From an uncultured Fidelibacterota bacterium (lineage in GTDB: Bacteria; Fidelibacterota; UBA8477; JABMPR01), in the NCBI GenBank assembly GCA_937888365.1, contig CALBFA010000043.1:12498-76497 (forward strand): a DNA stretch of 64,000 nt, read 5' to 3'. This document shows positions 2,195 through 18,535 of the stretch, in pieces (the stretch's first letter is position 1; each line of letters opens with the position of its first letter). A model generated the notes under the pieces. The model was given only the letters and a program-made list of their open reading frames with translations, made no database searches and had not been told where the DNA came from. Position numbers and translations under genes: made by a program.

Positions 2195-2809
2195 GTGAAA
2201 ATGAATAAAAACTTATTTATACACCCTCAAACAATAACAAAGAATATGAGGGAGAAGAAAAACAAGCACAAAAGTGCTATTGTTTGGCTCACAGGATTAT
2301 CTGGTTCCGGCAAATCTACTATTGCCTATGCTTTGGAAGCATATTTATTTGGGAAAAATTATCAAAGCGTGGTGTTAGACGGCGATAACGTACGCTTAGG
2401 AATAAATAGTGATTTAAGTTTTACGCAAAAAGACAGAAGCGAAAATATTAGAAGAGTCTCAGAGCTTGCGAAGCTATTTTCTAATTTAGGACACATTGTA
2501 ATTTGCTCATTTGTGTCTCCTTTTCAATTAGATCGAGATAAAGCACGGAAAACGACAAGTTCTGAAACGTATTTTGAAATATATATTAAGTGTTCGATTA
2601 AGACGACAGAATCGAGAGACCCTAAAGGCTTGTATAAAAAGGCTAAAGGAGGGGAAATCGATTCCTTTACGGGCGTCACTTCGCCTTATGAAGAACCCGT
2701 TTCTCCTGATTTAATTGTTGATACTGAACTTAATAATATTGAGGAAAGCGTAATAATGATTATCGAACTTTTAGCAAACAATGGAATAATAAGAGGCAAA
2801 TACGATTAA
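2195..2809 (+). CDS. cysC: Adenylylsulfate (APS) kinase
   Basis: Intact P-loop [12 protein letters not shown], plus [20 protein letters not shown] and DPKGLYKKA motifs typical of CysC. Start is GTG 2195, with alternative ATG 2201. Confidence 0.9.
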
Positions 2810-3728
2810 CATTAGTAAAAAAGAAAATTATCGCTTAAGCAATTTAGACGCATTAGAAGCTGAAAGCATCCACATTATTCGAGAGGTCGCGGCTGAGTTT
2901 GAAAATCCTGTTATGTTGTATTCTATAGGAAAAGATTCATCAGTTATGGTTAGATTGGCTCAAAAAGCATTTTATCCAGGGAAAATCCCTTTTCCGCTGC
3001 TTCATGTTGATTCGAATTGGAAATTTAGAGAAATGATTCAGTTTAGAGACACGTTTTGCCGCAATCAAAATATTGATTTAATTGTGCATAAAAACAAAAC
3101 TGGAATCGAATCCGGAGTGGGTCCTTTCACGCATGGGTCAAAAGTACATACGGATATCATGAAGACACAAGCGCTCCTGCAAGCCCTCAATAAATATAAA
3201 TTTGACGCTGCATTCGGAGGCGCGCGCCGTGATGAAGAAAAATCTCGAGCCAAAGAACGAATATTTAGTTTTCGCGACAAATTCCATCAATGGAACCCAA
3301 AAAATCAACGCCCAGAGTTATGGAGTTTATACAATTCAAAAATAGGGCAAGGCGAAAGTATTCGCGTTTTTCCAATCTCAAATTGGACAGAACTTGATAT
3401 CTGGCAGTATATCCGTAAGGAACAAATTCCAATTGTCCCTCTATATTTTTCAAAAAAGCGTCCAGTTGTAGAAATTGACGGTCAATTAATTTTGGTTGAT
3501 GACGATCGATTCCCCGCATCATTAAAAGAAAATATTTCACTTCGAGATGTGAGGTTTAGAACGCTAGGATGTTATCCTTTAACGGGCGCAATTAAATCGA
3601 CTGCGACAACAATTGAGCAAATAATCGAAGAAATGATGACGGAAACGAAAAGTGAAAGAACGACTCGAGTAATAGATTCTGATCAAGAGGCCTCTATGGA
3701 ACAAAAGAAACGCGAAGGCTATTTCTAA
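2805..3728 (+). CDS. cysD: Sulfate adenylyltransferase subunit 2
   Basis: [32 protein letters not shown] matches the CysD N-terminus almost residue for residue, and the PAPS-reductase-like fold motifs continue downstream. The first ATG (2913) would remove about 30 conserved residues. The open frame 2793-2912 has no ATG, GTG or TTG. ATT 2805 (GAGG 8 nt upstream) or ATT 2811 is the likely start. Confidence 0.88.
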
Positions 3729-3731
3729 CGA

Positions 3732-4856
3732 ATGTCATCTAGACATCAACTCATCTGGTTCTCAGAAATAAAATGGGACTATTTGATGACTCGAAAACAG
3801 CAGATCCTTACGCGCTTTCCACATCGTTGGGACATTTTATTCATCGAACCCTATGGATTAGGAAAAGCACAACACTGGAAATCAGTCAAGCGGGAAAATA
3901 TTACGGTCATCACAATCCCGTTTATGAAAACCATCCCTCATAGTAGATTAGCGAGGGTTCAATCAAATAATTTGGTCCAAATCATGTTTTCATGGTTTAT
4001 CACTATTTATCTTCAGATTGTATTGTTTAAATTGGGGTTCAATAAATCATCACGCCTTATTGGACTCAGCAATGTTTATTGGGGAAAGATAGCGTCAAAA
4101 CTCAAAGCCACACTCCATTTTTACGATGCAAATGACGGCCACTTAGATTTTCCTAATACACCTATTTGGTTGAAGGAATATTTGCATCAATATTTACAAA
4201 AGTCGGAGATTAACTTTTCTGTAAGTCCTGAGATTTCGAAAAAGATTAGCGACTTGGGTGCTCGAAATATTATTAATCTCGGGAACGGGGTCAATTTTCA
4301 TCATTTTAATTCGCCTCAAAACACACCCGAAGAACTTCAAAACATTGAAAAGCCTATTCTAGGATATGCTGGAGCGATGGATTGGCTAGACATAGATTTA
4401 GTTCAGAAAATTTGTATCGCTTTCCCAAACTATGAGATTGTACTTATCGGACCTGAGATTGAAGTGGGTTGGTATAAAAAACAAGTGAACTTTCAGGGAT
4501 TGAAAAATATTCGATATTTAGGAAAAGTTAATTACAGAGATTTACCTGCCTACGTTCAATCATTTAAAGTGGCTTTGATTCCTTTTGTTGTAAACGAACT
4601 CACCAGGCCTTTAAATCCGAACAAATTATACGAGTATAGCGCCGCTGGAAAAGTGGTCGTTTCCATGAATTACTCTTCAACAATTCAGAAGCTGAAAGAT
4701 ATTATTTTTGTCGGAAATACGCACGAGGAGTTTCTTGAGCAAATTGAAATAGCAATCGAAACCCCCAAAAACGAAGTCGGGATTCATTTAGCAAAACAAA
4801 ATAGTTGGGATGATATATCGAGAAAAATGGAAAATTCACTATTGGAAACGATTTGA
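3732..4856 (+). CDS. Glycosyltransferase, GT1-type (TuaH-like)
   Basis: N-terminal W-x-x-L-x-x-R-x-Q motif (WDYLMTRKQQILTRF). C-terminal GT-B half has VLIGP, NIRYLGKVNYRDLPAY and NPNKLYEYSAAGKVVVS. Confidence 0.6.
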   Translation: MSSRHQLIWFSEIKWDYLMTRKQQILTRFPHRWDILFIEPYGLGKAQHWKSVKRENITVITIPFMKTIPHSRLARVQSNNLVQIMFSWFITIYLQIVLFKLGFNKSSRLIGLSNVYWGKIASKLKATLHFYDANDGHLDFPNTPIWLKEYLHQYLQKSEINFSVSPEISKKISDLGARNIINLGNGVNFHHFNSPQNTPEELQNIEKPILGYAGAMDWLDIDLVQKICIAFPNYEIVLIGPEIEVGWYKKQVNFQGLKNIRYLGKVNYRDLPAYVQSFKVALIPFVVNELTRPLNPNKLYEYSAAGKVVVSMNYSSTIQKLKDIIFVGNTHEEFLEQIEIAIETPKNEVGIHLAKQNSWDDISRKMENSLLETI

Positions 4857-5836
4857 TTAAACCAATTTTTTTGCTAGGGTCACATAAATCTGGTACGAGT
4901 TTGCTGAGAGCTCTGTTTGACAACCACTCTCAAGTCTTTTCAATACCAATTGAGACGCATTTTGCTCATTTTTTGGGTTGGTGGACGAGATATCCATTTT
5001 TACGAACAAAAAAGAAAAACTATTCTCTTGAAGAATTTGAAAATAATGCGAGTAAATGGATTCATACTTGTAATACATCCAATGATCCGTATGGAGATAG
5101 TCAAGCAAGCGGATTGTTTGATGAGACTTTGTTTAAAGAAGAAATGGGGAAGCTTAATTCTAATTCCTCGGAGATGACTAAAATTGACCAATATTTCCGC
5201 TCTATCTATTCCGTGATCAACAAAAAAGCTGCTCCCGAAGATTTGCGATTTATTGAAAAAACTGTTGAAAACAGTGAGCATGCAATACGTATCGCTAGCT
5301 TATATCCAGATGCTAAATTCATACATATTTTAAGAAATCCTTATGCTAATTTAGTGACGCTTCGGAGATATCTACAAAAAATGAAAAAAAGCTACCCTCA
5401 TCTTGATTCACTTATAAAATCAATTTATGATAGTTTTTACTTTGCGGATTTTAACAGCACAAATATTGAAAATTATAAAATAATATATTATAAAGATCTT
5501 GTGACAAATCCACAAAAAATCATGAAGGATCTGGCGTTATTTGTCGAGATAGATTTTGAAGAAAACTTACTTACACCGAGCTATTTAGGTTCGTCTTGGG
5601 GTGGAAATTCTGTTTCGGGTAATAAATTTAAAGGTGTTTCATCGGCTCGAATCAATGCCTGGAAAAAAGATATTAACAGTTTAGAAATTGAAGTCGTGAA
5701 TGCTGTCATGGGGGTTGCTATCGAAAGAAATGACTATAAAAAAATTAAAGCAAAAAACAGAATTTTAATACCACAAAAAAGAGAATATTTTAGAGCCTAT
5801 CTAGGAAATAGGATTTTGCTAAAAAGACCATTTTAA
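4853..5836 (+). CDS. Sulfotransferase family protein
   Basis: 5'-PSB-like PAPS loop GSHKSGTSLL and 3'-PB-like ILRNPYANLVTLRRY. TTG start overlaps the upstream stop by 4 nt. Confidence 0.75.
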   Translation: MIKPIFLLGSHKSGTSLLRALFDNHSQVFSIPIETHFAHFLGWWTRYPFLRTKKKNYSLEEFENNASKWIHTCNTSNDPYGDSQASGLFDETLFKEEMGKLNSNSSEMTKIDQYFRSIYSVINKKAAPEDLRFIEKTVENSEHAIRIASLYPDAKFIHILRNPYANLVTLRRYLQKMKKSYPHLDSLIKSIYDSFYFADFNSTNIENYKIIYYKDLVTNPQKIMKDLALFVEIDFEENLLTPSYLGSSWGGNSVSGNKFKGVSSARINAWKKDINSLEIEVVNAVMGVAIERNDYKKIKAKNRILIPQKREYFRAYLGNRILLKRPF

Positions 5837-6979
5837 ATGCACATTTTAATTATTGCATCTTGGTATCCATCACCTCTCTCTTCCTATTCGGGTAATTTTG
5901 TCCAAGAACAGGTGGAGGCACTTTCAAAATCTGGATTAAAAGTTGGCGTTATTTCCTCAGTATTTTCACCCACTATAACGTTTAAAATATTTCAATCAAT
6001 TAGGGATAAGAATTATTTTTTAGCTCAAAAATCTTTTACAAAACGATTTTCATTTCTCCCGAGTAGCACCAATTATTATTGGGTAAACAATGGTTTAGAA
6101 TTATTTAAATCATATTGTGAAACGCAAGGTGTACCCGACGTAATTCATGCTCATTCGGCTCTTTATGGGGGTCGGTTGGCACTAAGCATCAAAAAACAAT
6201 TCAATATCCCTTTTATATTAACGGAGCATTCTTCCTTTCTACTTCAGAAAAAACTTCCTTGGTGGCAATTAAAAATGGCGAGGGCCGTTTATAGAAATTC
6301 CTACTTAAACATTGCTGTAAGTCGATACTTGAAAGAAAAAATTCAGCAAAACTTTAATCTAGATAAAGAAAAATGGCGTGTTTTGCCTAACATGATTAAT
6401 GATTCGTTTTTTGTATCGGAATTACATCAACCGGCCAAAGAAAAATTCATATTTTTAATTATTGGTATGCTCATACATGTCAAAGGACATCATAAGCTTT
6501 TAAAAGCTTTCGCGTTAGTAAGTGAGCAACTCTCGCTAGGAACTAAAATTAGAATTGTAGGTGACGGCCCACAAAAAGAATCTCTGTTGAATTTGGCGAA
6601 AGAATTAGGGATAGAATCACAGATTGAATGGCATGACTCGGTTCCCTCGACTGAAATTGCACATATGATTCAAGATGCTCATGTAATAGTCTCCTCCAGT
6701 GAGGCGGAAACATTTGGGCTCGTCTTAGTCGAAGCTTTGGCTTTAGGTAGACCTGTTGTAGCACTTGATAGTGGAGGACCGAGAGACATTGTCAATGATA
6801 GCGTTGGTTTTTTAATCCCTCAAGGATTTATCGAAGATTTTTCACAAGCACTAGTGAATATTCAGAAAAATTATTCTAACTATTCCCCTGAAAAGCTGAG
6901 ACATTATACTCAAGAGCGATTTCATTCAAGTGTGATTATTAATTCACTTTACTCCGCCTATAAAGAGATTGTTGCATAA
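5837..6979 (+). CDS. Glycosyltransferase family 4
   Basis: Typical GT4 C-terminal motif SSSEAETFGLVLVEALALGRPVVALDSGGPRDIV. The start abuts the upstream stop. Confidence 0.85.
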   Translation: MHILIIASWYPSPLSSYSGNFVQEQVEALSKSGLKVGVISSVFSPTITFKIFQSIRDKNYFLAQKSFTKRFSFLPSSTNYYWVNNGLELFKSYCETQGVPDVIHAHSALYGGRLALSIKKQFNIPFILTEHSSFLLQKKLPWWQLKMARAVYRNSYLNIAVSRYLKEKIQQNFNLDKEKWRVLPNMINDSFFVSELHQPAKEKFIFLIIGMLIHVKGHHKLLKAFALVSEQLSLGTKIRIVGDGPQKESLLNLAKELGIESQIEWHDSVPSTEIAHMIQDAHVIVSSSEAETFGLVLVEALALGRPVVALDSGGPRDIVNDSVGFLIPQGFIEDFSQALVNIQKNYSNYSPEKLRHYTQERFHSSVIINSLYSAYKEIVA

Positions 6980-6981
6980 CA

Positions 6982-8301
6982 ATGACATCTAAAAAACAAC
7001 TTGCATTCAATCTAAGCTCTACCTTTCTGAGACAAGTCGGAATAACAGTATTTCAGTTGGCTTTCACCGTTCTTTTGGCTCGAAATTTGGGCAAAGATAA
7101 CTATGGGGCATATGCTCTCGCTCTAATGCTTCCCCAGTTATTAATGAAAATCCTTAACCTGGGTTTAGGGTCTTCTGTCGTATATTTTCTTGCTCGCAAG
7201 GAACTCTCAATAAAAAATGCTATTTTCAAAGTTGTTCAACTCAGTGCATTTACGACAGTGCTTGCGCTATTGGCAGATGCGATTATTATATTTTTATTTG
7301 GAGACACCTTTTTCCAAAATGTTCCAACCAATGCACTTATTTTAGCTTCCGTTCTTTTCCCCGTTTTGATATTGCAAGAACTCTTACCCAATATTTTTTT
7401 AGGACTTCAAAAATTTTCAACTTATAACGTGAGTTATGTCGTTTTCCCCGTTTTCTCTCTCATTATTGTTTGGTTAATGATTCTGTTTTACAATTTTGAT
7501 GTTACTTGGGCACTCGGAGCTTTTGGGGCAGGTCAGTTTATTTCAATTTTAACGCTATTAATATTACTGAAACGAGAACAATTGCGTGAAATAGATGAGG
7601 TAACCAGTGTTTCATGGTCGCAACTGCTTTCATTTTCGTGGAAAATTCACGCCGCAAATATTGTTGGTTTTCTTAACTATCGAATTGATATTTTTTTGGT
7701 CAATTTTTTGGCGAATACGGCAACGGTAGGGATATATTTTATCGCAGTCCAAATAGCTGAAAAACTTTGGTTGTTGTCCCAAGCCGTAAACACAGCTGTT
7801 TTTCCCCATCTTTCACAGAAATATAAAAGAAGCAAGCTCGATACAAGTGCGACGGAAATTCTAGGTTCAACTACATTTTTATTAACAATATTAGCGTCTA
7901 TAATCTTGACGCTTTGTGCAAATGCCATCATTAAAACGTTTTTTGGGGAGGTATTTATTGAAGCGTCTGTTGTTTTGATATATTTATTACCTGGCATTAT
8001 CGCAACAAGTGTCGGTCGTATTTTATCAAATGATTTTAGTGCAAGAGGCGAGCCTCAACTCAACATCTATGTCGGGCTGTTTACGGTCATTTCAAATGTT
8101 ATAGCAAATTTGTATTTCATTCCCAAAATGGGTGCAAGGGGAGCCGCCTTGGCAACAAGTTTAAGTTACGGCCTTAGCCTAATCATTAAGCTATTCATCT
8201 ATTTTCAATTGGTAAAAGTACCATTTTGGAGAGTTCTATTTCCTGGAAAAGCATTAATTGATATAGGGAAAAGTATCATCGCAAATAGAAAAATAATCTG
8301 A
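6982..8301 (+). CDS. wzx: Oligosaccharide/polysaccharide flippase (Wzx, MOP superfamily)
   Basis: 439 aa and hydrophobic throughout (about 12 TM segments). It sits inside a glycan operon and has the [10 protein letters not shown] late motif typical of Wzx/MurJ-like flippases. Confidence 0.8.
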
Positions 8302-8308
8302 AGATAAT

Positions 8309-10165
8309 ATGAGTATTAGTACCTTTTTAGATCAAGACGAAAAGAAAGATCTGCTTAGATTTATTACAGCAGGTTCGGTAGATGATGGGAAATCAACTTT
8401 AATCGGCCGTTTATTGTATGATAGTAAGCTGTTGTATGAAGATCAGCTTGCCACCCTAGCTCAAGAGAGCAAAAGGCAAGGTTCTGCTGGTGCCGATATT
8501 GATTACGCGTTATTATTAGATGGATTGAAAGCTGAACGAGAGCAAGGAATAACCATCGACGTCGCGTATCGGTATTTTTCCACAAATAAACGAAAATTTA
8601 TTATTGCAGATACGCCTGGTCATGAGCAATACACACGAAACATGGTAACAGGCGCATCCACATCTCAACTTGCAATCGTTTTAATTGATGCCGAAAAAGG
8701 CGTTATTACACAAACCAAGCGGCATACATTTTTGATTGATCTTCTGGGAATAAAACACCTAATAGTGGCAATCAATAAAATGGATCTAGTTAACTATGCC
8801 CAAAATATATTTGATGAAATAGTCGAATCATTTAAATCTTTTTCGGCTAGACTATCAATACCTCATATCGAGTTTGTTCCTCTATCAGCTCTACGGGGAG
8901 ATAATGTCGTGGATGTCTCAGGAAAGATGCCTTGGTATCTTGGGAAAACACTTATGTCCATGCTGGAGACAATCCATATTTCAAATGCTTTTAATATGAT
9001 AGATTTTCGATATCCTGTACAATATGTCTTGCGACCTGATGGAAAATATCGTGGCTTTGCAGGGAGAATTGCTTCTGGAATTATTCGTGTGGGCGATGAG
9101 CTTATCGTGTTGCCATCACATTTAAAAACACGTGTAAAATCCATTAATGTCTCAACGCAAAATCAGAGTTACGCATTTGCTGGTCAATCCGTCAGTTTGG
9201 AACTTGAAGACGAAATTGATATTAGCCGAGGCGATTTACTCGTGCATCCTCAAAACATGCCTAAAACAGGACATACTTTTGATTCAACTTTGGTTTGGAT
9301 GGCTACTTCGCCGTTTGATGCATCAAGAACCTATCTTCTTAAACATACAACGCGTATTGTTAAAGCTCGTTTGAGTGAGATTCGGTATAAAATTGATGTC
9401 AATACCATGCATCGTTCGTCTGTTAAAACCTTGGGAATGAATGATATAGCAAGAGTCGCCGTTACAACACAAGAGGCCTTAAGTTTTGATGCCTATATTA
9501 AAAATAAAGAGACGGGCGCATTTGTCGTTATTGATGAACTGAGTCATGAAACAGTTGCCGTGGGTATGATTTTAGATAGGGTCGCAGAAGATGTTCCTCA
9601 ATCTCAAAAACGAACATTTGAAAGAGTCAATTATTCACAGGATAGTCTAGTGACGACTCAACAACGACTTAATAGCTATCAACAAAAAGCGCTAACATTT
9701 TGGGTCTCTTGCAATCAGCTATCTGAATGTAAAACATTCGCCTATGAGCTCGAAAAACGATTGTTTGAATCCGGAAAACATGTTGTTGTGTTGGATGCAT
9801 CGCTTGTAGGACCACTTCTTCAAGATAAGATTACTCTCATAGACGATTTCCAATACAACGAGTATCTTAAAATATTCGAGTTGGCAAAATTATTAAATGA
9901 CAATGGATTAATTGCCATCGTGAACGTTCCAATCCACAACATTTCACTAAAGCAGGATATTAAAAAAAATATTTACACAAAATCCCTAGTTGAAGTTTTT
10001 TTTGAAGTTTCTCTAAAAAAGAATAATAAGAGCCAATCTGATGCTGATTCTGAGAGTGACAAAGTAGAATCCAGGGAACAAATTTATTGTGTTTCCCAAA
10101 ATAATTGGGAGCAAATAATTACGAGGCTGTCAAAACTAGTGGAACCAGAAATCGACTGTTCGTGA
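8309..10165 (+). CDS. cysN: Sulfate adenylyltransferase subunit 1 (GTPase) fused to a degenerate APS-kinase-like domain
   Basis: GTPase motifs [14 protein letters not shown] and NKMD, then EF-Tu-like beta-barrel domains. The C-terminal ~170 aa align to CysC, but the P-loop reads [11 protein letters not shown]. Confidence 0.9.
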
Positions 10166-10210
10166 AGCGTGTCCAAAAAATTAAAAAAAAGACGCAATAA
10201 AAGGAATAGA

Positions 10211-11221
10211 ATGACGCACTCAACACTTAAAACCCAGAACCCAAATCTTATTTTAGTAATAGGCGGTGCAGGGTACATTGGAAGCCATATTGTGGCTGAT
10301 TTATTGGCTGAGGGTCACGACATTACGGTTTTTGATAACCTTTCGACGGGATTTAAAGAAAATATTCCCCGAGGTGTCAATTTCTACCATGGAGACATCC
10401 TAAATAAAGGCGATTTAAAGGGTGTATTTCAACAACCTTTCGATTGTGTGATGCATTTTGCGGCTCTAAAGGCGGCGGGGGATTCGATGCTAAATCCATC
10501 GAAATATGCGGAGCATAACATTAGCGGATCCATCAATATTCTTGACGCAATGCTCGCGGCAAATGTTAAAAACATAATCTTTTCGTCTTCGGCGGCGGTT
10601 TATGGGGCTCCGGAATATCTGCCTGTTGACGAAAAACATCCGACACATCCCGAAAACTTTTATGGCTATACTAAACTCGCCATAGAAGACATCCTAAATT
10701 GGTATGCGAAGCTTAAAAATATTAATTTTGCGGCGCTTCGTTATTTTAATGCGGCGGGTTATGATGCCTTGGGACGAGTGTCTCAACTCGAACGAAATCC
10801 TGCAAATTTATTACCTATCGTGATGGAAATTGCATCAGGCATGCGTAAAAAAATGCAGATTTTCGGTGATGATTATGACACACACGATGGAACTGGCGTA
10901 CGGGATTACATCCACGTGAACGACTTGGCAACGGCTCATATCAAAGCGATGAATTTTATTATGGAAAACAACCAAAGCTTAACCGTAAATTTAGCGACGG
11001 GTGAAGGATTTTCTGTTTTAGACGTCATCAAAGCGGTGGAGAAAATCACGGGGCAAAAAATAAATTACGAAATTGTAGCACGACGTCTCGGTGATCCAGC
11101 CGAACTAATCGCCCAAGCGTTACGGGCGGACGACATCTTGAAATGGAAGGCGAAACATTCTTCTTTAGAAAATATTTTGGAAACGATGTGGCGTGTGTAT
11201 AGAATACATCGACAGAATTAA
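10211..11221 (+). CDS. galE: UDP-glucose 4-epimerase
   Basis: Rossmann motif VIGGAGYIGSH and YGYTK catalytic motif, with GalE-like length. GTG 10169 would add a poly-Lys/Arg leader, so ATG 10211 is preferred. Confidence 0.85.
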   Translation: MTHSTLKTQNPNLILVIGGAGYIGSHIVADLLAEGHDITVFDNLSTGFKENIPRGVNFYHGDILNKGDLKGVFQQPFDCVMHFAALKAAGDSMLNPSKYAEHNISGSINILDAMLAANVKNIIFSSSAAVYGAPEYLPVDEKHPTHPENFYGYTKLAIEDILNWYAKLKNINFAALRYFNAAGYDALGRVSQLERNPANLLPIVMEIASGMRKKMQIFGDDYDTHDGTGVRDYIHVNDLATAHIKAMNFIMENNQSLTVNLATGEGFSVLDVIKAVEKITGQKINYEIVARRLGDPAELIAQALRADDILKWKAKHSSLENILETMWRVYRIHRQN

Positions 11222-11552
11222 AGTACGCGGAGGATACATAATTACTTTTGCCGATCATCATCCCCGTATAAAAATCGAGAAAAGCGATAAAAAACATGAT
11301 TAAATGCTCATGTGACGATTGTCAAAATTACAACATTTTGCTGGAAAAGACTTTCGAAATCGGGCGTTAATATTAGTATATCTCGGTCTCTAAGGATTGA
11401 TATTTACTAACAAATAAACGCTGAAAAGCATCCATAGAGATACAATAATTTTATCCATCGTGATCCACAATATTGGGACTCACCGTGGCGGAGCCGTGCG
11501 GTGAAGGTTAATTATTAATGAAAAGAAAAAGCACGACCACAAAGGGAAAATT

Positions 11553-11625
11553 GTAAGGTAAGCATCTTGCTTGCGAAAAAAGTCTAACACCAAGCTACAC
11601 AAAGAAGCACTAAGTTTCACAAAGA
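11553..11625 (+). repeat. Module B copy 1 (hairpin gtaaggtaagcatcttgcttgcg plus CACAAAG-rich tail)
   Basis: gtaaggtaagcatcttgcttgcgaaaaaagtctaacaccaagctacacaaagaagcactaagtttcacaaaga. Confidence 0.8.
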
Positions 11626-11760
11626 GGAAATTAAGTAAAGAAAGAACACGTGAAGCGAATGTTTCGCTTTTAACTTGATAAATTCTCTGTGCTCTCTGCG
11701 TAAATCTCCGTTTCCTCTGTGGTTAAAAGAGTCTCATATTATCTCATAGACTAAAATAAC

Positions 11761-11892
11761 GTAGAGCAAAAAACACTCTCCTCCATGCTAAGGAGGAGTA
11801 CCCGCCCGTTTGCGGGGGAGGTGGTAGAAAGTACTGCCTCATAAACAAATCCACTCAATCCTTGAAATCCGTGTCCAATATTTTTTACTTTA
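11761..11892. repeat. Element A copy 1 (~133-nt structured dispersed repeat)
   Basis: gtagagcaaaaaacactctcctcc..aaggaggagtacccgcccgtttgcgggggaggtggtag...atccttgaaatccgtgtcca..ttttttactt. One of five near-identical copies, all in the same orientation. Confidence 0.85.
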
Positions 11893-11951
11893 CCGTTATA
11901 AGAAAACAAAACAGTCCTCAAATGAACACAAATGGTTTAAATGGAAAACTT

Positions 11952-11986
11952 GTCACCTGTCACCCGTCACTCTTCACGCGTCAATT
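11952..11986 (+). repeat. Heptanucleotide array (5 units, GTCACNN type)
   Basis: gtcacct gtcaccc gtcactc ttcacgc gtcaatt. Strict 7-nt register. Confidence 0.8.
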
Positions 11987-12174
11987 CCCTCCGTGGTAAT
12001 TATTTTTAAGACGACACAGGAGATTTTCAACACAATGACAATGCCAAAATTATTTAAACGTCAATCGCATTTTTTTCATAAAAATACTTGTCCTTAACTA
12101 TTTAGCGAATACTTTAACGAATAAATGACGCATCAAAGCGTAAATATGGAAAACGAGAGATAAACTAATAAATT

Positions 12175-12858
12175 ATGAGGGAAAAAATGAAAAAATTATT
12201 GTTACTGATTTTCATGATTGTAGTAGCCCTACCTTTGATGGCTCAAGACGACATGATGATGGAAGATTCTACTGTAATGGAAGAAGTTGTAATGGATTCT
12301 ATGGCAACAGTTGTTGATACTGTCGCTGCAGAGTTAACAGATGTCGCTGAAGAAGCCGTTGCTGCCGTTGAAGAAATGGTCGAAGCACCAAAAGCCGAAG
12401 GCATGAAGGGTATTTTCGTCGCTCCACAATTTAACTATATCCTTTTCAAACCTTTAAATTCGGGTGGTTCAGGAATGAGCTATGGCATATCAGTTGGTAC
12501 ACCTGTTATGTTTGATTTATTCGGAATGAATGCTCATGTTGTTGTGGATTTAGGCATGGTCAGTGAAGGTACAGATGCAGCGGTTGAAGGTTTTGTTGCA
12601 ATGGCAGGTTTTTTGACTAAAGTCGCCAAACTTCCTTTTGGTTGCGTTGTTGTTGACTCAAAATTAGGTTGGGCTGGCGAAGGTTTTGGTGCTAATCTTT
12701 CTGCAAATATTGTTTATCCAGTTGCTGGTATGCCTTTAAAAATTGTTGCTAAAGTCGGTGCTGGTGGTGGTTTAATGGCAGATGATGCAGGTGCATTCAA
12801 CCATGTATTCTTTGGACTTGCTGCTAACTACAGCTTGGATGACTTACTCAACAAATAA
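12175..12858 (+). CDS. Hypothetical secreted protein with Met/Glu/Val-rich N-terminal region
   Basis: Signal peptide MKKLLLLIFMIVVALPLMAQD, then an acidic low-complexity segment and a Gly/Ala/Val-rich C-terminal half with alternating hydrophobicity. Followed by a terminator hairpin. Confidence 0.6.
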   Translation: MREKMKKLLLLIFMIVVALPLMAQDDMMMEDSTVMEEVVMDSMATVVDTVAAELTDVAEEAVAAVEEMVEAPKAEGMKGIFVAPQFNYILFKPLNSGGSGMSYGISVGTPVMFDLFGMNAHVVVDLGMVSEGTDAAVEGFVAMAGFLTKVAKLPFGCVVVDSKLGWAGEGFGANLSANIVYPVAGMPLKIVAKVGAGGGLMADDAGAFNHVFFGLAANYSLDDLLNK

Positions 12859-12880
12859 ACGAGTAAAAATAGTTGATTTT

Positions 12881-12908
12881 AAAAACCCCGGCTTGCTGGG
12901 GTTTTTTG
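12881..12908 (+). terminator. Intrinsic terminator downstream of 12175-12858
   Basis: aaaaaCCCCggcttgctGGGGtttttt: a G/C stem flanked by an A-run and a T-run, 23 nt after the stop codon. Confidence 0.7.
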
Positions 12909-12971
12909 TTTGATGGACGTGATGCCGTTTTGGGCTTCCAGTTCCCCGCAGATTGCGCAGAAAAAAAAATT

Positions 12972-13044
12972 GTAATGTAAGCCTCTTGCTTGCGGAAAAG
13001 TGTAACACCAAGGCACACGAAGAAACACCAAGTTTCACAAAGGG
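12972..13044 (+). repeat. Module B copy 2 (diverged hairpin)
   Basis: gtaatgtaagcctcttgcttgcggaaaagtgtaacaccaaggcacacgaagaaacaccaagtttcacaaaggg. Confidence 0.75.
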
Positions 13045-13120
13045 AAAAAAGTAAAAAGATAGCGAAAAATACAAAAACATCACACAAAGCCACGAAGCCA
13101 CAAAGAAATATTATCTCTCA

Positions 13121-13149
13121 TTCCCCTCCCAGGAGGGGTAGGGGTGGGT
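13121..13149 (+). repeat. Module C copy (CCCCTCC..GGAGGGG palindrome plus AGGGGTGGGT)
   Basis: ttcccctcccaggaggggtaggggtgggt. Confidence 0.8.
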
Positions 13150-13206
13150 CACTCTGATCAGCCAGTGGGCGGAGAAGCATCTCCTCAAGTCTCATAGCAA
13201 AAAATA

Positions 13207-13340
13207 GTAAGGTAAGCATCTTGCTTGCGAAAAAAGTCTACTACCCTTCGACAAGCTCAGTGCAGGCGCAGTCGCACGAAGCCACAAAGAGAAAAAGTCT
13301 ACCACTAAGTTGCACAAAGAAGCACCGAGTTTCACAAAGA
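13207..13340 (+). repeat. Module B copy 3 with an internal insertion of a ttcgacaagctcag module
   Basis: The hairpin is identical to copy 1. The tail is interrupted by ctacccttcgacaagctcagtgcaggcgcagtcgcacgaagccacaaag. Confidence 0.75.
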
Positions 13341-13354
13341 AAAGCATTATTTTA

Positions 13355-13384
13355 TTCCCCTCCAAGGAGGGGTTAGGGGTGGGT
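13355..13384 (+). repeat. Module C copy
   Basis: ttcccctccaaggaggggttaggggtgggt. Confidence 0.8.
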
Positions 13385-13507
13385 AAGAATTACAAATGAT
13401 AAATTACAAATGTATATAACAGCCGTATTTTTCTAAAATCAAATATAATTTTCTCTGCGTTCTCTGTGGTTAAAAGAGTCTCATGTAATCTCATAGACTA
13501 AAATAAC

Positions 13508-13640
13508 GTAGAGCCAAAAACACTCTCCTCCTTGCGAAGGATGAGTACCCGCCAGTTTGCGGGGGAGGTGGTAGAAAAGCACTGCCTTATAAATAAATCC
13601 ACCCAATCCTTGAAATCCGTGTCCACTATTTTTTACTTTT
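13508..13640. repeat. Element A copy 2
   Basis: Same element. Hairpin 1 carries one stem mismatch (aaggaTgag) and a loop change (gcg). Confidence 0.85.
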
Positions 13641-13821
13641 CCGTGACACACCTACTACAATAAGACACACGAGATTCTTCATGGCGTTGGATTATGTCAT
13701 CCTGAGCAGTGGAGTGCAGCGTAACACCCGTCGAAGGATATAGAAAGAAAAAATGAATGATTAATCTTAAATATTTCATGTCCAACACTTCGACAGGCTC
13801 AGCATGACATGAAACGGTTTT

Positions 13822-13870
13822 GTCACTTGTCACCCATAACTCATAACTCGTCACATGTCACTCTTTACTT
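13822..13870 (+). repeat. Heptanucleotide array (7 units)
   Basis: gtcactt gtcaccc ataactc ataactc gtcacat gtcactc tttactt. Lies 109 nt upstream of pal. Confidence 0.85.
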
Positions 13871-13978
13871 TTTTTATTTATAATTTAACATTTAGCATTT
13901 GTAATTTTCAACTATATTACGCCGAACAAAAAGGCGCTAACAAAAATTTACGCCTAAACCCTAAGGAGGGGATAAAAT

Positions 13979-14581
13979 ATGAGAAAGATAACCCTTGTTT
14001 TAATGATGCTGGTGATGGGGAGTGCTGCCCTGTTTTTTATGTCGGGATGTTCCAAAGAGAAGAAACAAGTGCCTGCAAATGACACAACAGTTGTCGAAGA
14101 GACAACCGCTGTTCGAGAACCCGTTAAAGAAACCGCTCCAACCAGCGATATGGTAGCCAAACAAGCAGATGCTGCTGCTGCGGAAAAGGCTAAGGCAAAA
14201 GTCCAAGCCAAAGCTGCAGCTAAAGTGCTACAGGATGAAAAAAATGTTTTTGAATCTGAAAAAATCCATTTTACCTACAACAAATCTGTTTTGGCGCCAT
14301 CTGCTCAAAAAGTATTAGAAAAGAAAGCCGACTGGTTGATTAAACATCCCAGCTATTCAGTACGTATCGAAGGTAATTGCGATGAGCGAGGCAGCAATAA
14401 ATACAACCTTACCCTGGGAGCCGATAGAGCTAGATCTGCTGAGAAATACCTTGTAAATATGGGTATTGCAGCAAACCGTATTTCCACAGTTAGCTACGGC
14501 GAAGAGAAGCCAGCTGATCCGAGCCATAACGAAAAGGCTTGGTCTCAGAATCGGAGAGATGAGTTCAAACTTATCAAGTAG
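13979..14581 (+). CDS. pal: Peptidoglycan-associated lipoprotein (OmpA-family)
   Basis: Lipobox FFMSGC. OmpA-like domain motifs NCDERGSNKYNLTLGADRARSAEKYL and VSYGEEKP. Confidence 0.85.
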   Translation: MRKITLVLMMLVMGSAALFFMSGCSKEKKQVPANDTTVVEETTAVREPVKETAPTSDMVAKQADAAAAEKAKAKVQAKAAAKVLQDEKNVFESEKIHFTYNKSVLAPSAQKVLEKKADWLIKHPSYSVRIEGNCDERGSNKYNLTLGADRARSAEKYLVNMGIAANRISTVSYGEEKPADPSHNEKAWSQNRRDEFKLIK

Positions 14582-14599
14582 TGACTTGCCGACTCTTGG

Positions 14600-14660
14600 C
14601 ATGTTTACGATGTTGAGAGTGAGGTTCAACTACAATTTGGTTGACCCACTCAACACATAA
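14600..14660 (+). pseudogene. Remnant of the 3' end of a paralogue of the 12175-12858 gene
   Basis: The reading frame ends ..RVRFNYNLVDPLNT-stop, against ..GLAANYSLDDLLNK-stop at 12858. aactacaatttggttgacccactcaacacataa matches aactacagcttggatgacttactcaacaaataa at 26 of 33 positions, followed by an identical downstream flank. Confidence 0.45.
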
Positions 14661-14685
14661 ACGAGTAAAAATAGTTGATTTTAAA

Positions 14686-14713
14686 AACCCCGGCTTGCTG
14701 TGGTTTTTTTGTC
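14686..14713 (+). terminator. Duplicated, slightly degenerate copy of the 12881 terminator, downstream of pal
   Basis: aaaaaccccggcttgctgtggttttttt. One stem mismatch relative to the 12881 copy. Confidence 0.55.
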
Positions 14714-14739
14714 TTACGGACGTGATGACGTTTTGGTTG

Positions 14740-14794
14740 AAAAGTGTAACACCAAGGCACACGAAGAAACACCAAGTTTCACAAAGGGAAAAAA
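14740..14794 (+). repeat. Module B copy 4 (tail only)
   Basis: 55 nt identical to 12996-13050. Confidence 0.85.
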
Positions 14795-14952
14795 ATAAAT
14801 CATTCCATCAGACAGCGCAGAATTTCGCAGAAATAATATATAGTTTAGAGCAGCCCATGACTTTAGTCGTGGGGGCAATTTGGAAAAAAACTTTTTTTAT
14901 AATCGTTAATCTCTCAGTAGTAAAATCTTCGGGGTTTCACGAGATCGCAATA

Positions 14953-15007
14953 ACCTACCCCTAACCCCTTCTCCCGACGCGTTGGTCGGGATTTTCAACG
15001 AAAGGGG
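14953..15007 (-). repeat. Module C copy, inverted, with a nested hairpin inserted in its loop
   Basis: acctacccctaaccccttc-tcccgacgcgttggtcggga-ttttcaacgaaagggg. Confidence 0.7.
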
Positions 15008-15024
15008 AACTAACTTTATCTTGT

Positions 15025-15121
15025 GTCGCTCATCACCCGTCACCTGTCACTCAAAACTCATAACTCATAACTTGCACTCGTCACCTGTCACATTTTGTAA
15101 TTTGTAATTCACCACTTTCAC
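15025..15121 (+). repeat. Heptanucleotide array (14 units, one 6-nt unit)
   Basis: gtcgctc atcaccc gtcacct gtcactc aaaactc ataactc ataactt gcactc gtcacct gtcacat tttgtaa tttgtaa ttcacca ctttcac. Ends 12 nt before the dppB-like ATG. Confidence 0.85.
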
Positions 15122-17176: not shown

Positions 17177-17202
17177 AAAAAAACTACTACGGAGCATGTC
17201 CC

Positions 17203-17230
17203 GTAACCAGTAACACGTGACACGTAACAA
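17203..17230 (-). repeat. Heptanucleotide array, inverted orientation (4 units)
   Basis: gtaacca gtaacac gtgacac gtaacaa. This is the reverse complement of the GT(C/T)ACNN register. Confidence 0.6.
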
Positions 17231-17312
17231 GAAAAAATAAAGACTCACACCCTTCGACAAGCTCAGGACAGGCGCCGTTGCACTAAGCCACAAAGAAAAA
17301 GCTTATTTTTTA

Positions 17313-17341
17313 TTCCCCTCCAAGGAGGGGCAGGGGTGGGT
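17313..17341 (+). repeat. Module C copy
   Basis: ttcccctccaaggaggggcaggggtgggt. Confidence 0.8.
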
Positions 17342-17347
17342 TTCTTT

Positions 17348-17417
17348 GTCACGTGTCACTCATAACTCAAAACCCATCACTCGTCACTCGTCACTTGTCA
17401 CACGTTTCCTGTCACCC
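17348..17417 (+). repeat. Heptanucleotide array (10 units)
   Basis: gtcacgt gtcactc ataactc aaaaccc atcactc gtcactc gtcactt gtcacac gtttcct gtcaccc. Confidence 0.85.
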
Positions 17418-17463
17418 TGAATGAAATGAAGGGTCCCCTCAAGTCTCATAGCAAAAAAATAGT

Positions 17464-17596
17464 GTAGAGCAAAAAACGCTCTCCTCCTTGCTAAGGAGGA
17501 GTACCCGCTAGTTTGCGGGGGAGGTGGTAGATTGCACTATCTCATAAACAAATCCACCCAATCCTTGAAATCCGTGTCCACTATTTTTTACTTTTT
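17464..17596. repeat. Element A copy 3
   Basis: Same element. Differences fall mainly in the hairpin-2 loop (cccgcTAgtttgcggg) and the central spacer. Confidence 0.85.
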
Positions 17597-17723
17597 CGTT
17601 ATAAGAAAACAAAACAGTCCTCAAATGCACACAAATGAACACAAATGGTTTAAATGGAAAGCCTGTCACTTTGCCACCATTTTATGCTTCGACGGACGCT
17701 TGCGCTGCTCAGCCAGACAAATG

Positions 17724-17751
17724 GTGACTTGTCACTCGTTACTTGTCACCC
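17724..17751 (+). repeat. Heptanucleotide array (4 units)
   Basis: gtgactt gtcactc gttactt gtcaccc. Confidence 0.7.
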
Positions 17752-17925
17752 TGCTCAGCCAGTTGGCGGAAAAGAGTCCCATGCAATCTCATAGACGAAA
17801 GTACAGCAAAACGACGCACGAGATTCTTCATTACGCTTTGCTCCATTCAGAATGACAAAACTAACGCAAACCTGTCACCCTGAGCCCGTCGAAGGGTCTC
17901 CTCAAATCTCATAGACTAAAATAGC

Positions 17926-18059
17926 GTAGAGCAAAAAAAACACTCTCCTCCTTGCTAAGGAGGAGTACCCGCCAGTTTGCGGGGGAGGTGGTAGAAAGTA
18001 CTGCCACAAAACAAATCCACCCAATCCTTGAAATCCGTGTCCACTATTTTTTACTTTTT
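17926..18059. repeat. Element A copy 4
   Basis: Same element, close to the consensus. Confidence 0.85.
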
Positions 18060-18136
18060 CGTGACACACGAGATTCTTCATTGCGCTTTGCTTCATTCAG
18101 AATGACAATATCTGGGTTTTTCACGCGTTCGCAAAA

Positions 18137-18164
18137 ACCTACCCCTAACCCCTTCTGGAAGGGG
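18137..18164 (-). repeat. Module C copy, inverted
   Basis: acctacccctaaccccttctggaagggg. Confidence 0.8.
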
Positions 18165-18192
18165 AACTAGCTTTCTCTTGTGCACAACGATA

Positions 18193-18265
18193 GTAAGGTA
18201 AGCATCTTGCTTGCGAAAAAAGTCTACCACCAAGTTCCACGAAGAAGCACCGAGTTCCACAAAGA
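18193..18265 (+). repeat. Module B copy 6
   Basis: gtaaggtaagcatcttgcttgcgaaaaaagtctaccaccaagttccacgaagaagcaccgagttccacaaaga. Confidence 0.8.
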
Positions 18266-18286
18266 AAAACAAAAGCAAAAAATAGC

Positions 18287-18420
18287 GTAGAGCAAAAAAA
18301 CACTCTCCTCCTTGCGAAGGAGGAGTACCCGCCCGTTTGCGGGGGAGGTGGTAGAAAACACTGCCTCATAAACAAATCCACCCAATCCTTGAAATCCGTG
18401 TCCACTATTTTTTACTTTTT
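18287..18420. repeat. Element A copy 5
   Basis: Same element. Hairpin-1 loop is gcg. Confidence 0.85.
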
Positions 18421-18505
18421 CGTGACACGCCTGCTACATAAAGACACACGAGATTCTTCATTACGCTCTGTAGTAAAATCTTCGGGGTTTCACGAGATCG
18501 CAATA

Positions 18506-18535
18506 ACCTACCCCTAACCCCTTCCAAAAGAGGAA
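18506..18535 (-). repeat. Module C copy, inverted, with a degenerate right arm
   Basis: acctacccctaaccccttccaaaagaggaa. Confidence 0.7.

Follow-up and report, generated by a model that had tools for sequence, protein, structure and literature searches.

The nodPQ genes of rhizobia are homologous to cysDNC, and NodPQ/NodH is a precedent for the type of locus described here, as are the Bacteroides BT_0411-BT_0416 cluster, the sulfated capsule cluster of Cobetia marina and the synechan cluster. NodH belongs to the sulfotransferase family PF13469 (PMC11625862). In Bacteroides thetaiotaomicron, BT_0411-BT_0416 combine a PAPS cluster with a cholesterol sulfotransferase, and the acceptor of BT_0416 is a sterol (PMC9417993). 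For the capsule cluster of C. marina KMM 1449 the sulfated product has been chemically proven (PMC11766843), and in the xss (synechan) cluster of Synechocystis sulfation has been assigned to the lipid-linked repeat unit, ahead of flipping (PMC8205485).

Here we describe an eight-gene operon of an uncultured Marinimicrobia (Fidelibacterota) bacterium, at positions 2195-11221 (+) of the window, i.e. the 64-kb stretch of DNA that was analysed, by which PAPS is made and most likely used on a sugar chain before export. We consider it probable that this single operon links its own supply of PAPS to the building of a sulfated lipid-linked oligosaccharide.

Gene content and organisation of the operon

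The ORF listing and the Pfam/NCBIfam scans gave eight co-directional genes, in the order cysC, cysD, TuaH-like GT-B glycosyltransferase (GT), Sulfotransfer_3 sulfotransferase (ST), GT4, Wzx-type flippase, cysN and galE:

2195..2809, + strand: cysC, APS kinase (APS to PAPS); TIGR00455 242.6 bits (cutoff 138.7), PF01583 207 bits
2805..3728, + strand: cysD, ATP sulfurylase small subunit, from its probable start; TIGR02039 456.6 bits (cutoff 396.6)
3732..4856, + strand: glycosyltransferase, GT-B fold, TuaH-like C-terminal half; PF13692 36.1 bits, PF00534 27.1 bits
4853..5836, + strand: PAPS-dependent sulfotransferase, 327 aa; PF13469 81.8 bits, PF00685 42.6 bits
5837..6979, + strand: GT4-family retaining glycosyltransferase; PF00534 123 bits, PF13439 70 bits
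6982..8301, + strand: Wzx-type (MOP superfamily) flippase, predicted for lipid-linked oligosaccharide; PF01943 54.1 bits, PF03023 56.5 bits, PF13440 50 bits
8309..10165, + strand: cysN, ATP sulfurylase GTPase subunit, 618 aa; NF003478 634 bits (cutoff 590), TIGR02034 583.6 bits
9641..10162, + strand: putative APS-kinase-like pseudo-domain at the C-terminus of CysN, residues ~445-618; PF01583 37.9 bits, profile positions 2-115 of 152
10169..11221, + strand: galE, UDP-glucose 4-epimerase; TIGR01179 371 bits (cutoff 262.3), PF01370 187 bits

The profile searches bore out all eight gene identities of the original prediction, made from the sequence alone. It had counted nine plus-strand genes while naming eight; the common strand and the tight packing held, the count did not. 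Given a cysD start at ATT 2805 and a GTG start for galE, the intergenic spacing across the operon is -5 to +7 nt. The cysC/cysD junction is -5 only with this cysD start and becomes a 103-nt gap if ATG 2913 is used, and it is followed by cysD/GT (+3), GT/ST (-4), ST/GT4 (0), GT4/Wzx (+2), Wzx/cysN (+7) and cysN/galE, which is +3 if galE starts at GTG 10169 and +45 if it starts at ATG 10211. From the cysD stop to the cysN start there are 4580 nt, in agreement with the predicted 4.6 kb. The last gene of the operon is galE; 3' of it lie about 950 nt of non-coding, repeat-rich DNA, and the first ORF of at least 80 aa beyond galE starts at 12175. Promoter and terminator scans gave counts equal to the shuffled expectation, and it is therefore only from the spacing that we infer co-transcription of the eight genes.

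As predicted, no PAPS/APS reductase (cysH) or sulfite reductase was found nearby, either within the window or in those parts of the 84-kb contig that were retrieved. The original prediction had also missed genes for initiation, Wzy and export, and this was confirmed across the window: it has no initiating phosphoglycosyltransferase, no Wzy, no chain-length regulator and neither an exporter nor a ligase, so that a complete pathway cannot be drawn up from it. A sulfate symporter is also absent from the window and no cysQ adjoins the operon.

PAPS supply, sulfotransferase and glycan assembly

CysC (204 aa from GTG 2195 or 202 aa from ATG 2201) has intact Walker and FVSP motifs, and the PP-loop of CysD and the GTPase motifs of CysN (G1, G3 DTPGH and G4 NKMD) are intact as well. 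The cysD frame has no canonical start codon, with no ATG, GTG or TTG between 2793 and 2913. Its first ATG is at 2913, and a start there would cost ~36 conserved residues and let the TIGR02039 match begin at profile position 24. The in-frame sequence upstream of this ATG encodes the conserved N-terminus, and with it the window CysD is 76% identical over 300 aa to the CysD of two other loci (L165 and L167). Translation of cysD probably begins at ATT 2805 (or 2811), in an overlap with the stop of cysC, and a Shine-Dalgarno-like AAGAGG is located 8 nt upstream of ATT 2805. Because a canonical start codon is missing, the expression level of cysD is uncertain. In an alignment with the window CysC and bona fide CysNC proteins, Walker A in the tail of CysN is replaced by CNQLSECKT, another motif now reads LDAS and FISP has changed to VPIH; judged from these motifs, the APS-kinase-like tail is catalytically dead. 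Neither this domain nor the unusual cysD start had been noticed in the original prediction.

The ST starts with a TTG within a 4-nt overlap with the stop of the preceding GT. Both predicted motifs, GSHKSGTSLL and RNPYANLVTLRR, were found in the protein, and in a 29-sequence family alignment the columns of the 5'-PSB loop (GSHKSGTS) and of the 3'-PB motif (RNPYANLVTLRR) show no variation. All significant PDB fold matches of the AF2 model (pLDDT 91, pTM 0.90) were PAPS-dependent sulfotransferases, the best being CurM/OLS ST, TPST1/2, Stf1/Stf9 and HS 3-OST, all with probability 1.00. Since the 4853-5836 protein has both the motifs and the fold, the objection that it might lack PAPS-binding residues falls away. 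The match to the model of NoeE, which is related to NodH, was weak (22.8 bits, cutoff 500). Scans of the ST for a TM-like segment or a signal peptide found none, and the protein is predicted to be cytoplasmic.

The GT upstream of the ST had been called GT1-type, which holds for the Pfam family Glycos_transf_1 (GT-B/GT4-like fold) but not for CAZy GT1. Its score with the TuaH model NF047676 (86 bits) is far under the cutoff of 550, and the N-terminal 165 residues had no family match in the Pfam/NCBIfam scans. The GT4 carries an EX7E-type motif (E-TFGLVLV-E) and GalE the motifs GGAGYIGSH and catalytic YGYTK. The flippase has 11 TM-like segments; a MurJ orthologue was ruled out (TIGR01695 40.5, cutoff 235).

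A conserved cassette and the separation of cysD from cysN

We surveyed 141 non-redundant loci with ST homologues, 85 of them flanked by 8 kb or more of sequence, and in these well-flanked loci GT-B transferases (67/85) and a Wzx-like flippase (59/85) were found. The order GT-ST-GT4-Wzx is kept in L005 (49/44/37/46% identity, the first figure being the GT) and in L087, where the 78 aa of the GT that are present are 63% identical. The shorter order ST-GT4-Wzx is kept in L001/L085 (53/42/58%, the last figure being the flippase), L097, L062 and L073, and a GT4 homologue has the same position in L001, L005, L087, L097, L062 and L073. In L001 and L005 the module is nested in larger glycan loci with GT2, GT1, YfhO and epimerase genes. 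A contiguous cysC-cysD-cysN adjoins the ST in five loci (L032, L073, L119, L122 and L129); glycan loci with PAPS synthesis and a sulfotransferase are both published (PMC11766843) and recurrent in public genomes. Among the five, L073 is an unsplit counterpart of the window operon, with the order cysQ-DUF2061-cysC-cysD-cysN-x-ST-GT4-Wzx in a capsule-type locus. The closest relatives of the window CysD (76% identity) and CysN are not in assimilation operons but in cysQ-sulfate symporter-cysC-cysD-cysN-sulfotransferase operons without reductases.

The separation of cysD from cysN, to which the original prediction drew attention, is real and rare, since the two genes are contiguous in every other locus examined. 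The split was seen in the present population only, in two independent assemblies. A contig from a second sample (L004) has the same order with 99.975% identity over 15.8 kb (4 SNPs, zero frameshifts), and in a third assembly (L169) the cysC/cysD junction has the identical sequence, which excludes that the arrangement is an assembly artefact. The split is best read as a rearrangement that would have placed the conserved four-gene glycan cassette inside an ancestral cysC-cysD-cysN unit, and it implies no change of mechanism.

Proposed pathway, alternatives and known systems

In the pathway that we propose, CysD and CysN would convert sulfate to APS as a GTP-driven ATP sulfurylase, and APS would be converted to PAPS by the free-standing CysC, the kinase-like tail of CysN probably being dead. 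GalE would provide a UDP-galacto-configured sugar. On a lipid carrier primed by an initiating transferase encoded elsewhere, the glycan would be extended on the cytoplasmic face by the TuaH-like GT and the GT4, and the soluble ST would move sulfate from PAPS onto a hydroxyl of the lipid-linked intermediate. Wzx would then flip the sulfated unit to the periplasmic face, and polymerisation or ligation to the final acceptor would involve genes outside the window. We infer that the acceptor is the lipid-linked intermediate, that it is sulfated before it is flipped, and what then becomes of the glycan. The predicted function, PAPS for sulfation of a Wzx-flipped glycan, is supported, though not proven, by the motifs and fold of the ST, the GT and Wzx context, the relatives of the cys genes and the absence of nearby reductases.

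PAPS may also be used for assimilation with cysH elsewhere, as the inspected part of the genome is 84 kb. If the cys genes were ordinary sulfate activation for Cys/Met synthesis, with cysH/sir elsewhere, the cassette would have landed between cysD and cysN and the ST would tap a general PAPS pool, in which case a "dedicated factory" overstates the link. The cys genes do not differ sharply from the cassette genes in GC or GC3, and cysDNC operons without an adjoining cysH are common; E. coli, for one, has cysDNC and cysJIH in different operons. The same separation is described for Vibrio (PMC6113621). We nevertheless regard this explanation as unlikely, because the nearest cysD/cysN relatives are consistently in ST-linked, reductase-free PAPS operons, elsewhere in the ST family cysC-cysD-cysN has been brought into glycan loci, and start/stop overlaps join cys and cassette genes in one translational unit. 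A separate cysC is also retained, although many bacteria assimilate sulfate without PAPS, by the APS reductase route.

Somewhat less probable still is that the GT/Wzx glycan is unsulfated and the ST acts on another acceptor, for instance a tyrosine of a protein, a nucleotide sugar, or a small molecule of lipid or sterol-like nature. RaxST is a sulfotransferase with a peptide acceptor, and the solved structures nearest to the window ST act on polyketide or peptide acceptors (the acyl-chain hydroxyl for CurM/OLS ST, tyrosine for TPST1/2). Many homologues carry the JGI label protein-tyrosine sulfotransferase, and the nearest cysD/cysN relatives pair with a different ST and no glycan genes, like the Bacteroides sterol-sulfotransferase cluster (PMC9417993). 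The STs of such BT_0416-like operons are, however, just 20-24% identical to the window ST (a figure for L165-L167, not for BT_0416 itself), and the glycolipid sulfotransferase NodH shares the Pfam family PF13469 of the window ST (PMC11625862). The ST gene overlaps the GT gene before it and directly adjoins the GT4 gene behind it, an order kept across distant genomes, and the flippase recurs in the family loci. We give very little credence to a decaying locus that no longer makes PAPS, with the cysD start lost, the CysN kinase domain dead and the ATP-sulfurylase genes split. No ATG, GTG or TTG precedes the conserved CysD N-terminus and the C-terminal domain of CysN has lost its catalytic motifs, but none of the eight reading frames is broken or shortened, the CysD PP-loop, the CysN GTPase motifs and the CysC kinase motifs are preserved, and the separate cysC makes up for the dead domain. 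The AAGAGG ahead of ATT 2805, a cysC/cysD junction identical in three assemblies and the lack of frameshifts between samples also argue against decay.

As a proposed private PAPS supply for a sulfated lipid-linked glycan, the operon resembles rhizobial NodP/NodQ and NodH, a dedicated second CysD/CysN(C)-type PAPS system linked to a PF13469-type ST for a lipid-linked oligosaccharide. In rhizobia, however, nodP and nodQ lie next to each other, NodQ is a functional CysN-CysC fusion, and the acceptor of NodH is a secreted lipochitooligosaccharide instead of the proposed Wzx-flipped unit. BT_0411-BT_0416 is likewise a reductase-free operon with PAPS-synthesis genes followed by an ST, the layout found around the nearest CysD and CysN relatives, but GT and Wzx genes are absent from it and its cysD and cysN lie side by side; the window, for its part, has neither the symporter nor the adjacent cysQ of this layout. 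The C. marina polysaccharide locus also has its own PAPS operon (cysNC, cysD, cysQ and sulfate permease) and an ST; in contrast to the compact 8-gene Wzx-type operon of the window, it is an ABC-transporter (kps) pathway of ~70 genes in a gammaproteobacterium, with adjacent cysD and cysN and a bifunctional CysNC. The Synechocystis xss cluster is of the Wzx/Wzy type with embedded sulfotransferases, but unlike the window it has no PAPS-synthesis genes and has eight GTs, Wzy and PCP. A tblastn search with the window ST against PLSDB plasmids (E <= 1e-3) gave no Synechocystis record, in a collection that may not include the xss-bearing pSYSM.

L073 (OW818646.1, a metagenome-derived chromosome), an uncharacterised locus for which our literature search found no publication, shares with the window a galE-like epimerase, cysC, cysD, cysN, an ST (40% identity), GT4 and Wzx, arranged in nearly the same order, and has a cysQ-like gene. 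It differs by its contiguous cysD and cysN, by a CysN of 419 aa without the kinase-like tail and by its much larger size, which takes in another ST, further GTs and a NusG/UpxY-like regulator. Taken together, a glycan locus with PAPS synthesis and a sulfotransferase is an already known concept, and the unusual point of the present operon is its gene order only, with cysD and cysN apart.

Gene content and order of the operon

ORF listing combined with Pfam and NCBIfam scans gave eight co-directional genes at 2195-11221, which bore out the gene names of the original prediction but not its count of nine.

Genes of the operon, in window coordinates, with scores against the model cutoffs
2195-2809, + strand: cysC (TIGR00455, 242.6 bits vs. 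cutoff 138.7; P-loop, DGD and FxSP intact)
end at 3728, + strand: cysD (TIGR02039, 456.6 bits vs. cutoff 396.6; PP-loop, SxGKDS, present as SIGKDSS)
3732-4856, + strand: GT-B glycosyltransferase, C-terminal half TuaH-like
4853-5836, + strand: Sulfotransfer_3/Sulfotransfer_1 protein, here ST (PF13469, 81.8 bits vs. cutoff 27)
5837-6979, + strand: GT4 glycosyltransferase
6982-8301, + strand: MOP/Wzx flippase (PF01943, PF13440 and PF03023 each above cutoff; 11 TM-like segments)
8309-10165, + strand: cysN (NF003478, 634 bits vs. cutoff 590)
10169-11221, + strand: galE (TIGR01179, 371 bits vs. cutoff 262.3; GGAGYIG for GxxGxxG and YGYTK for YxxxK)

From cysD onwards the junctions measure +3 (cysD/GT), -4 (GT/ST), 0 (ST/GT4), +2 (GT4/Wzx), +7 (Wzx/cysN) and +3 nt (cysN/galE). 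The start of cysN lies 4580 nt from the stop of cysD within this one tightly packed gene string, in agreement with the 4.6 kb first estimated. The G1, G3 and G4 motifs of an EF-Tu-like GTPase were found in CysN ([14 protein letters not shown] and NKMD), and the catalytic motifs are intact in CysC, CysD, CysN, ST, GT4 and GalE. For the flippase, the NCBIfam WZX_like model scored 21 against a subfamily cutoff of 300. L004, a contig assembled from another sample, matches the window at 99.975% identity across 15.8 kb and keeps the gene order, and a third assembly (L169) has an identical cysC/cysD junction; contigs of this population are present in JGI 3300074305 and 3300028502 and in NCBI GCA_041294365.1; since the arrangement is reproduced in L004 and, at that junction, in L169, it is not a chimera. 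The operon is slightly AT-richer (GC 0.33-0.38) than the window (mean 0.40), and its base composition has no marked break between the cys genes and the cassette formed by the TuaH-like GT, ST, GT4 and Wzx genes. In a promoter/terminator consensus scan the counts equalled the shuffled expectation, and transcript boundaries are therefore not informed by it.

The cysD ORF is listed from ATG 2913, and CysD models then start only at profile position 24-47. Codons for the conserved CysD N-terminus (…[24 protein letters not shown]) precede this ATG in the same frame, and the 23-31 N-terminal profile positions are covered only with a start at ATT 2805 or 2811. The upstream frame is open only from 2793 and holds no ATG, GTG or TTG up to the conserved N-terminus, and the extended protein is 76% identical over 300 residues to CysD of L165 and L167, two loci of the nearest CysD/CysN relatives. 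ATT 2805 lies 8 nt past an AAGAGG and overlaps the cysC stop TAA (2807-2809). ATT 2805 is the likeliest start and ATT 2811 the second choice; translation from ATT 2805 would make cysC and cysD overlap by 5 nt. Fusion of CysC and CysD through a programmed frameshift was considered and rejected, as no slippery sequence is present and a Shine-Dalgarno-like motif with a well-spaced ATT is simpler. In this stretch (2793-2915) gene callers shorten CysD to 271 or 260 aa, and the junction is identical in three assemblies; for want of a canonical start, gene calls systematically miss about 36 residues of CysD, which annotators should be aware of.

CysN reaches 618 aa through an added C-terminal APS-kinase-like domain (9641-10162), which gave only a partial Pfam match (37.9 bits). 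In an alignment with the window CysC and bona fide CysNC proteins, this tail has CNQLSECKT where Walker A would be GLSGSGKS, LDAS in place of LDGD and VPIH in place of FISP. With Walker A, DGD and FISP all replaced, the protein does not qualify as a NodQ-type bifunctional CysN-CysC, and these substitutions argue for a catalytically dead domain, which would account for the operon having a cysC of its own. The whole protein lies narrowly above the NF004035 cutoff for bifunctional CysNC (718.8 vs. 715). Automated pipelines therefore probably mislabel it as bifunctional CysN/CysC despite the vanished kinase motifs, a second point where annotation calls for caution. As a secondary and doubtful reading, the dead tail and the ATT-started cysD might be regulatory devices that tune PAPS flux.

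The closest CysN relatives, in L165 (10001-12187), L166 (10001-12406) and L167 (10001-11875), are 728, 801 and 624 aa long. Each aligns twice to the window CysN (residues 1-357 and 106-425), which indicates that part of the GTPase/domain II region has been duplicated within the protein; this is seen in three different samples.

The sulfotransferase and the conserved cassette

Both motifs originally quoted for ST are present in the ORF 4853-5836, and both PAPS-binding motifs, whose loss had been named as evidence against the prediction, are kept. An alignment of 29 homologues showed three motifs to be invariant or nearly so, namely H11-K12-S13-G14-T15 of the 5'-phosphosulfate loop, R161-N162-P163-Y164 of the 3'-phosphate motif and E34-x-H36; K12-S13-G14-T15 and R161-N162-P163-Y164 were invariant. 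An ST profile searched against solved structures matched the CurM and OLS sulfotransferase domains and TPST1/2, and the E-x-H motif aligned with E-L-H of the CurM ST. The AlphaFold (AF2) model is confident (pLDDT 91, pTM 0.90), and all 34 of its Foldseek matches at E <= 1e-3 were PAPS-dependent sulfotransferases (CurM ST, OLS ST, TPST, Stf1, Stf9, HS 3-OST, NDST and SULTs), led by CurM ST and TPST. The N-terminus opens directly into strand beta-1 with no hydrophobic segment, and ST is therefore predicted to be cytoplasmic.

A search of a large protein collection gave 166 ST homologues at E <= 1e-3, of which the best 120 were at most 52% identical except for the window's own protein. No characterised member of the subfamily was found among these best 120 of 166, the structure-profile matches or the plasmid-collection matches; in the latter, tblastn gave weak hits to Burkholderia, Chondrinema and Parasedimentitalea, with 24% identity among the matches listed.

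To place the operon in context, 160 loci with ST homologues were fetched from GTDB species genomes and JGI metagenomes, and the eight window proteins were mapped onto them by tblastn and an iterated profile search of all ORFs. After removal of duplicates and the window's own contigs, the survey set comprised 141 loci. Of the 85 loci flanked by 8 kb or more, 59 carry a Wzx-like flippase and 67 carry GT-B transferases. Where at least 2.6 kb lay downstream (94 loci), the flippase followed ST immediately in 20 and came after ST and a GT in 6. The full order TuaH-like GT, ST, GT4, Wzx is kept in L005, a MAG locus labelled Lentisphaeria (49/44/37/46% identity), and is also present in L087, while L001/L085 keep ST-GT4-Wzx (53/42/58% identity). 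In L001 and L005 these modules lie inside larger glycan loci with GT2, GT1, YfhO and epimerase genes and without cys genes. Contiguous cysC-cysD-cysN, always in that order, occurred in 5 of the 141 loci (L032, L073, L119, L122 and L129). One of them, L073 (3168-20633), runs NusG/UpxY-like, epimerase, cysQ-like, DUF2061, cysC, cysD, cysN, one ORF, ST, GT4 and Wzx, followed by further GTs (the locus has several GT4s) and a second ST; this capsule-type locus looks like a full counterpart of the window operon in which cysD and cysN have stayed together, and it seems not to have been described.

Two side observations concern L005, the closest relative that carries the cassette. A PF00884 sulfatase-family protein (13525-14820) is encoded directly after its Wzx gene and ahead of a YfhO-like membrane protein, an odd presence in a putative sulfated-glycan synthesis locus. 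Furthermore, a Lon homologue (P0253) is named 'Lentisphaeria bacterium' in one source and 'Candidatus Neomarinimicrobiota' in another, and because of this conflict the label of L005 may be unreliable.

The split of cysD and cysN was seen only in the window's population, among the 141 ST-seeded loci and three CysN-seeded loci. The nearest CysN relatives (P0122-P0124) all lie in operons of sulfate symporter, cysC, cysD, cysN and sulfotransferase, headed by a cysQ-like gene except in L165, and the sulfotransferases of these operons are 20-24% identical to ST. No remnants of the symporter or of the 366-aa sulfotransferase of such operons were found in the window. Most simply, a conserved glycan cassette would have ended up within a sulfotransferase-dedicated cysC-cysD-cysN unit; base composition marks no boundaries that would tell the direction of the rearrangement. 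As for mechanism, the split has no evident consequence and is a curiosity of gene order.

Genomic surroundings and the proposed pathway

The window has 53 ORFs of 100 aa or more, of which Pfam scans covered 52 (all except 63309-63941), and the fetched contig flanks were also considered. Neither PAPS/APS reductase nor sulfite reductase was detected in them, as had been claimed for the neighbourhood, and no sulfate transporter was found there. The same scans gave no initiating phosphoglycosyltransferase, Wzy, PCP or OPX, in line with the earlier view that the pathway is incomplete as seen in the operon; the missing genes may be encoded elsewhere in the genome. The window encodes LptF/G and LpxK, which indicates a diderm host, and a Lon protease 75-76% identical to proteins of Candidatus Marinimicrobia/Neomarinimicrobiota MAGs. 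T9SS-type and TonB-type proteins are encoded in the window flanks. From these markers the host is assigned to the Marinimicrobia (Fidelibacterota).

Other features of the region were noted. An ORF 13 kb from the operon (24255-25514, +) encodes 419 aa with at least 7 TM-like segments. A lax Pfam scan (E <= 1) of this and other orphan ORFs for a hidden Wzy or GT-C gave nothing; conceivably the protein is a membrane glycosyltransferase or polymerase that escapes recognition, though nothing supports this. An Inositol_P gene (possibly CysQ-like), 7.7 kb upstream and outside the window, was compared, over its 131 available residues, with the cysQ-like genes of L166 and L167; no similarity was detected, and we do not claim it as part of the system. 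Divergent to cysC, a 1084-aa secreted protein (1-1678, -, running on upstream in L003/L168) carries an N-terminal signal peptide and FG-GAP, He_PIG, Big_9 and cadherin-like repeats. The 515-nt leader between its gene and cysC has no recognisable RNA element: Rfam gave nothing in 1600-2300 at E <= 1, nor across the window at gathering thresholds, and folding was unexceptional (z = -1.8). No tRNAs were found in the window. Downstream of the operon, long non-coding stretches (11300-12100, 12800-13900, 14600-15100 and 17200-18600) consist of mosaic intergenic repeats with modules of 46-182 nt at 60-98% identity and no Rfam match, some copies terminating in a hairpin and T-run (e.g. 12826-12907 and 14628-14709).

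In the proposed pathway, CysD-CysN would make APS, from which CysC would make PAPS, while GalE would supply a galacto-configured UDP-sugar. A lipid-linked primer, made by an initiating enzyme with an unlinked gene, would be extended by the two GTs; the cytoplasmic ST would sulfate the lipid-linked intermediate and Wzx would flip it, leaving polymerisation or ligation of the flipped unit to unlinked genes. We consider it likely that the operon serves such PAPS-supplied sulfation of a Wzx-flipped lipid-linked glycan, based on the intact catalytic motifs, the operon-like packing, the conserved cassette and the lack of reduction genes nearby. Context and structure support the function first put forward.

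Three other explanations were weighed. The cys genes may serve general assimilation, the glycan genes being an incidental insertion; the sulfotransferase-linked operons of the nearest CysN relatives speak against this, and we regard it as unlikely. ST might instead act on a non-glycan acceptor, in favour of which CurM ST and TPST lead its structural matches; its position among glycosyltransferase and flippase genes and the recurrence of that cassette in other loci speak against it, and we hold it to be improbable. A decaying locus would be in keeping with the degenerate CysN tail, yet the motifs of CysC, CysD and the CysN GTPase are intact, and we hold decay to be very improbable.

Significance and relation to known systems

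Glycans that carry sulfate are resistant to degradation and bind metals, and they influence both biofilms and marine organic matter; to our knowledge, confirmed bacterial producers are few. Marinimicrobia are an abundant marine and lake lineage that is almost entirely uncultured. The window locus and the roughly 140 surveyed loci, which span MAGs of Marinimicrobia, Calditrichia, Bacteroidota, Chloroflexota, Cyanobacteria, Bacillota and Asgard archaea, suggest that Wzx-type glycan assembly widely involves one ST family, and a minority of these loci have their own PAPS supply. Tentatively, and with considerable doubt, a short sulfated oligosaccharide might adorn the surface of Marinimicrobia, or a glycan that they secrete or link to protein, and be made by a minimal module of two GTs, one ST and Wzx with its own PAPS. 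If so, bacteria beyond cyanobacteria would be direct water-column producers of sulfated glycans, which one source still calls a cyanobacterial speciality (PMC8205485). With eight genes, the operon is compact enough for tractable reconstitution. In a literature search judged on titles and abstracts, no report on sulfotransferases or sulfated glycans in Marinimicrobia was found.

Systems of this kind have been described before and occur repeatedly in public genomes; the gene order of this new member is unusual. The rhizobial nodPQ genes are homologous to cysDNC, and mycobacterial CysDNC/Stf0 and Xanthomonas RaxPQ/RaxST follow a matching logic. The window operon shares its logic with NodPQ/NodH, so that the parallel first drawn to NodPQ-NodH and CysDNC-Stf0 is upheld, and NodH is likewise a PF13469 enzyme (PMC11625862). 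The operons of the nearest CysN relatives have the published layout of Bacteroides BT_0411-BT_0416, with cysQ-like, sulfate symporter, cysC, cysD, cysN and sulfotransferase genes (PMC9417993). Sulfotransferases also occur within the Wzx/Wzy clusters for synechan (PMC8205485) and of Actinoplanes wps-1 (PMC13390465); a tblastn of ST against the plasmid collection, which may not include pSYSM, gave no Synechocystis record that would link it to synechan. Among glycan loci, the closest match is the sulfated capsule cluster of Cobetia marina, with cysNC, cysD, cysQ, sulfate permease and sulfotransferase genes (PMC11766843). Particular to the window operon are its compact eight-gene form, the cysD/cysN split, the apparently dead CysN kinase tail, the probable ATT start of cysD and the host lineage.
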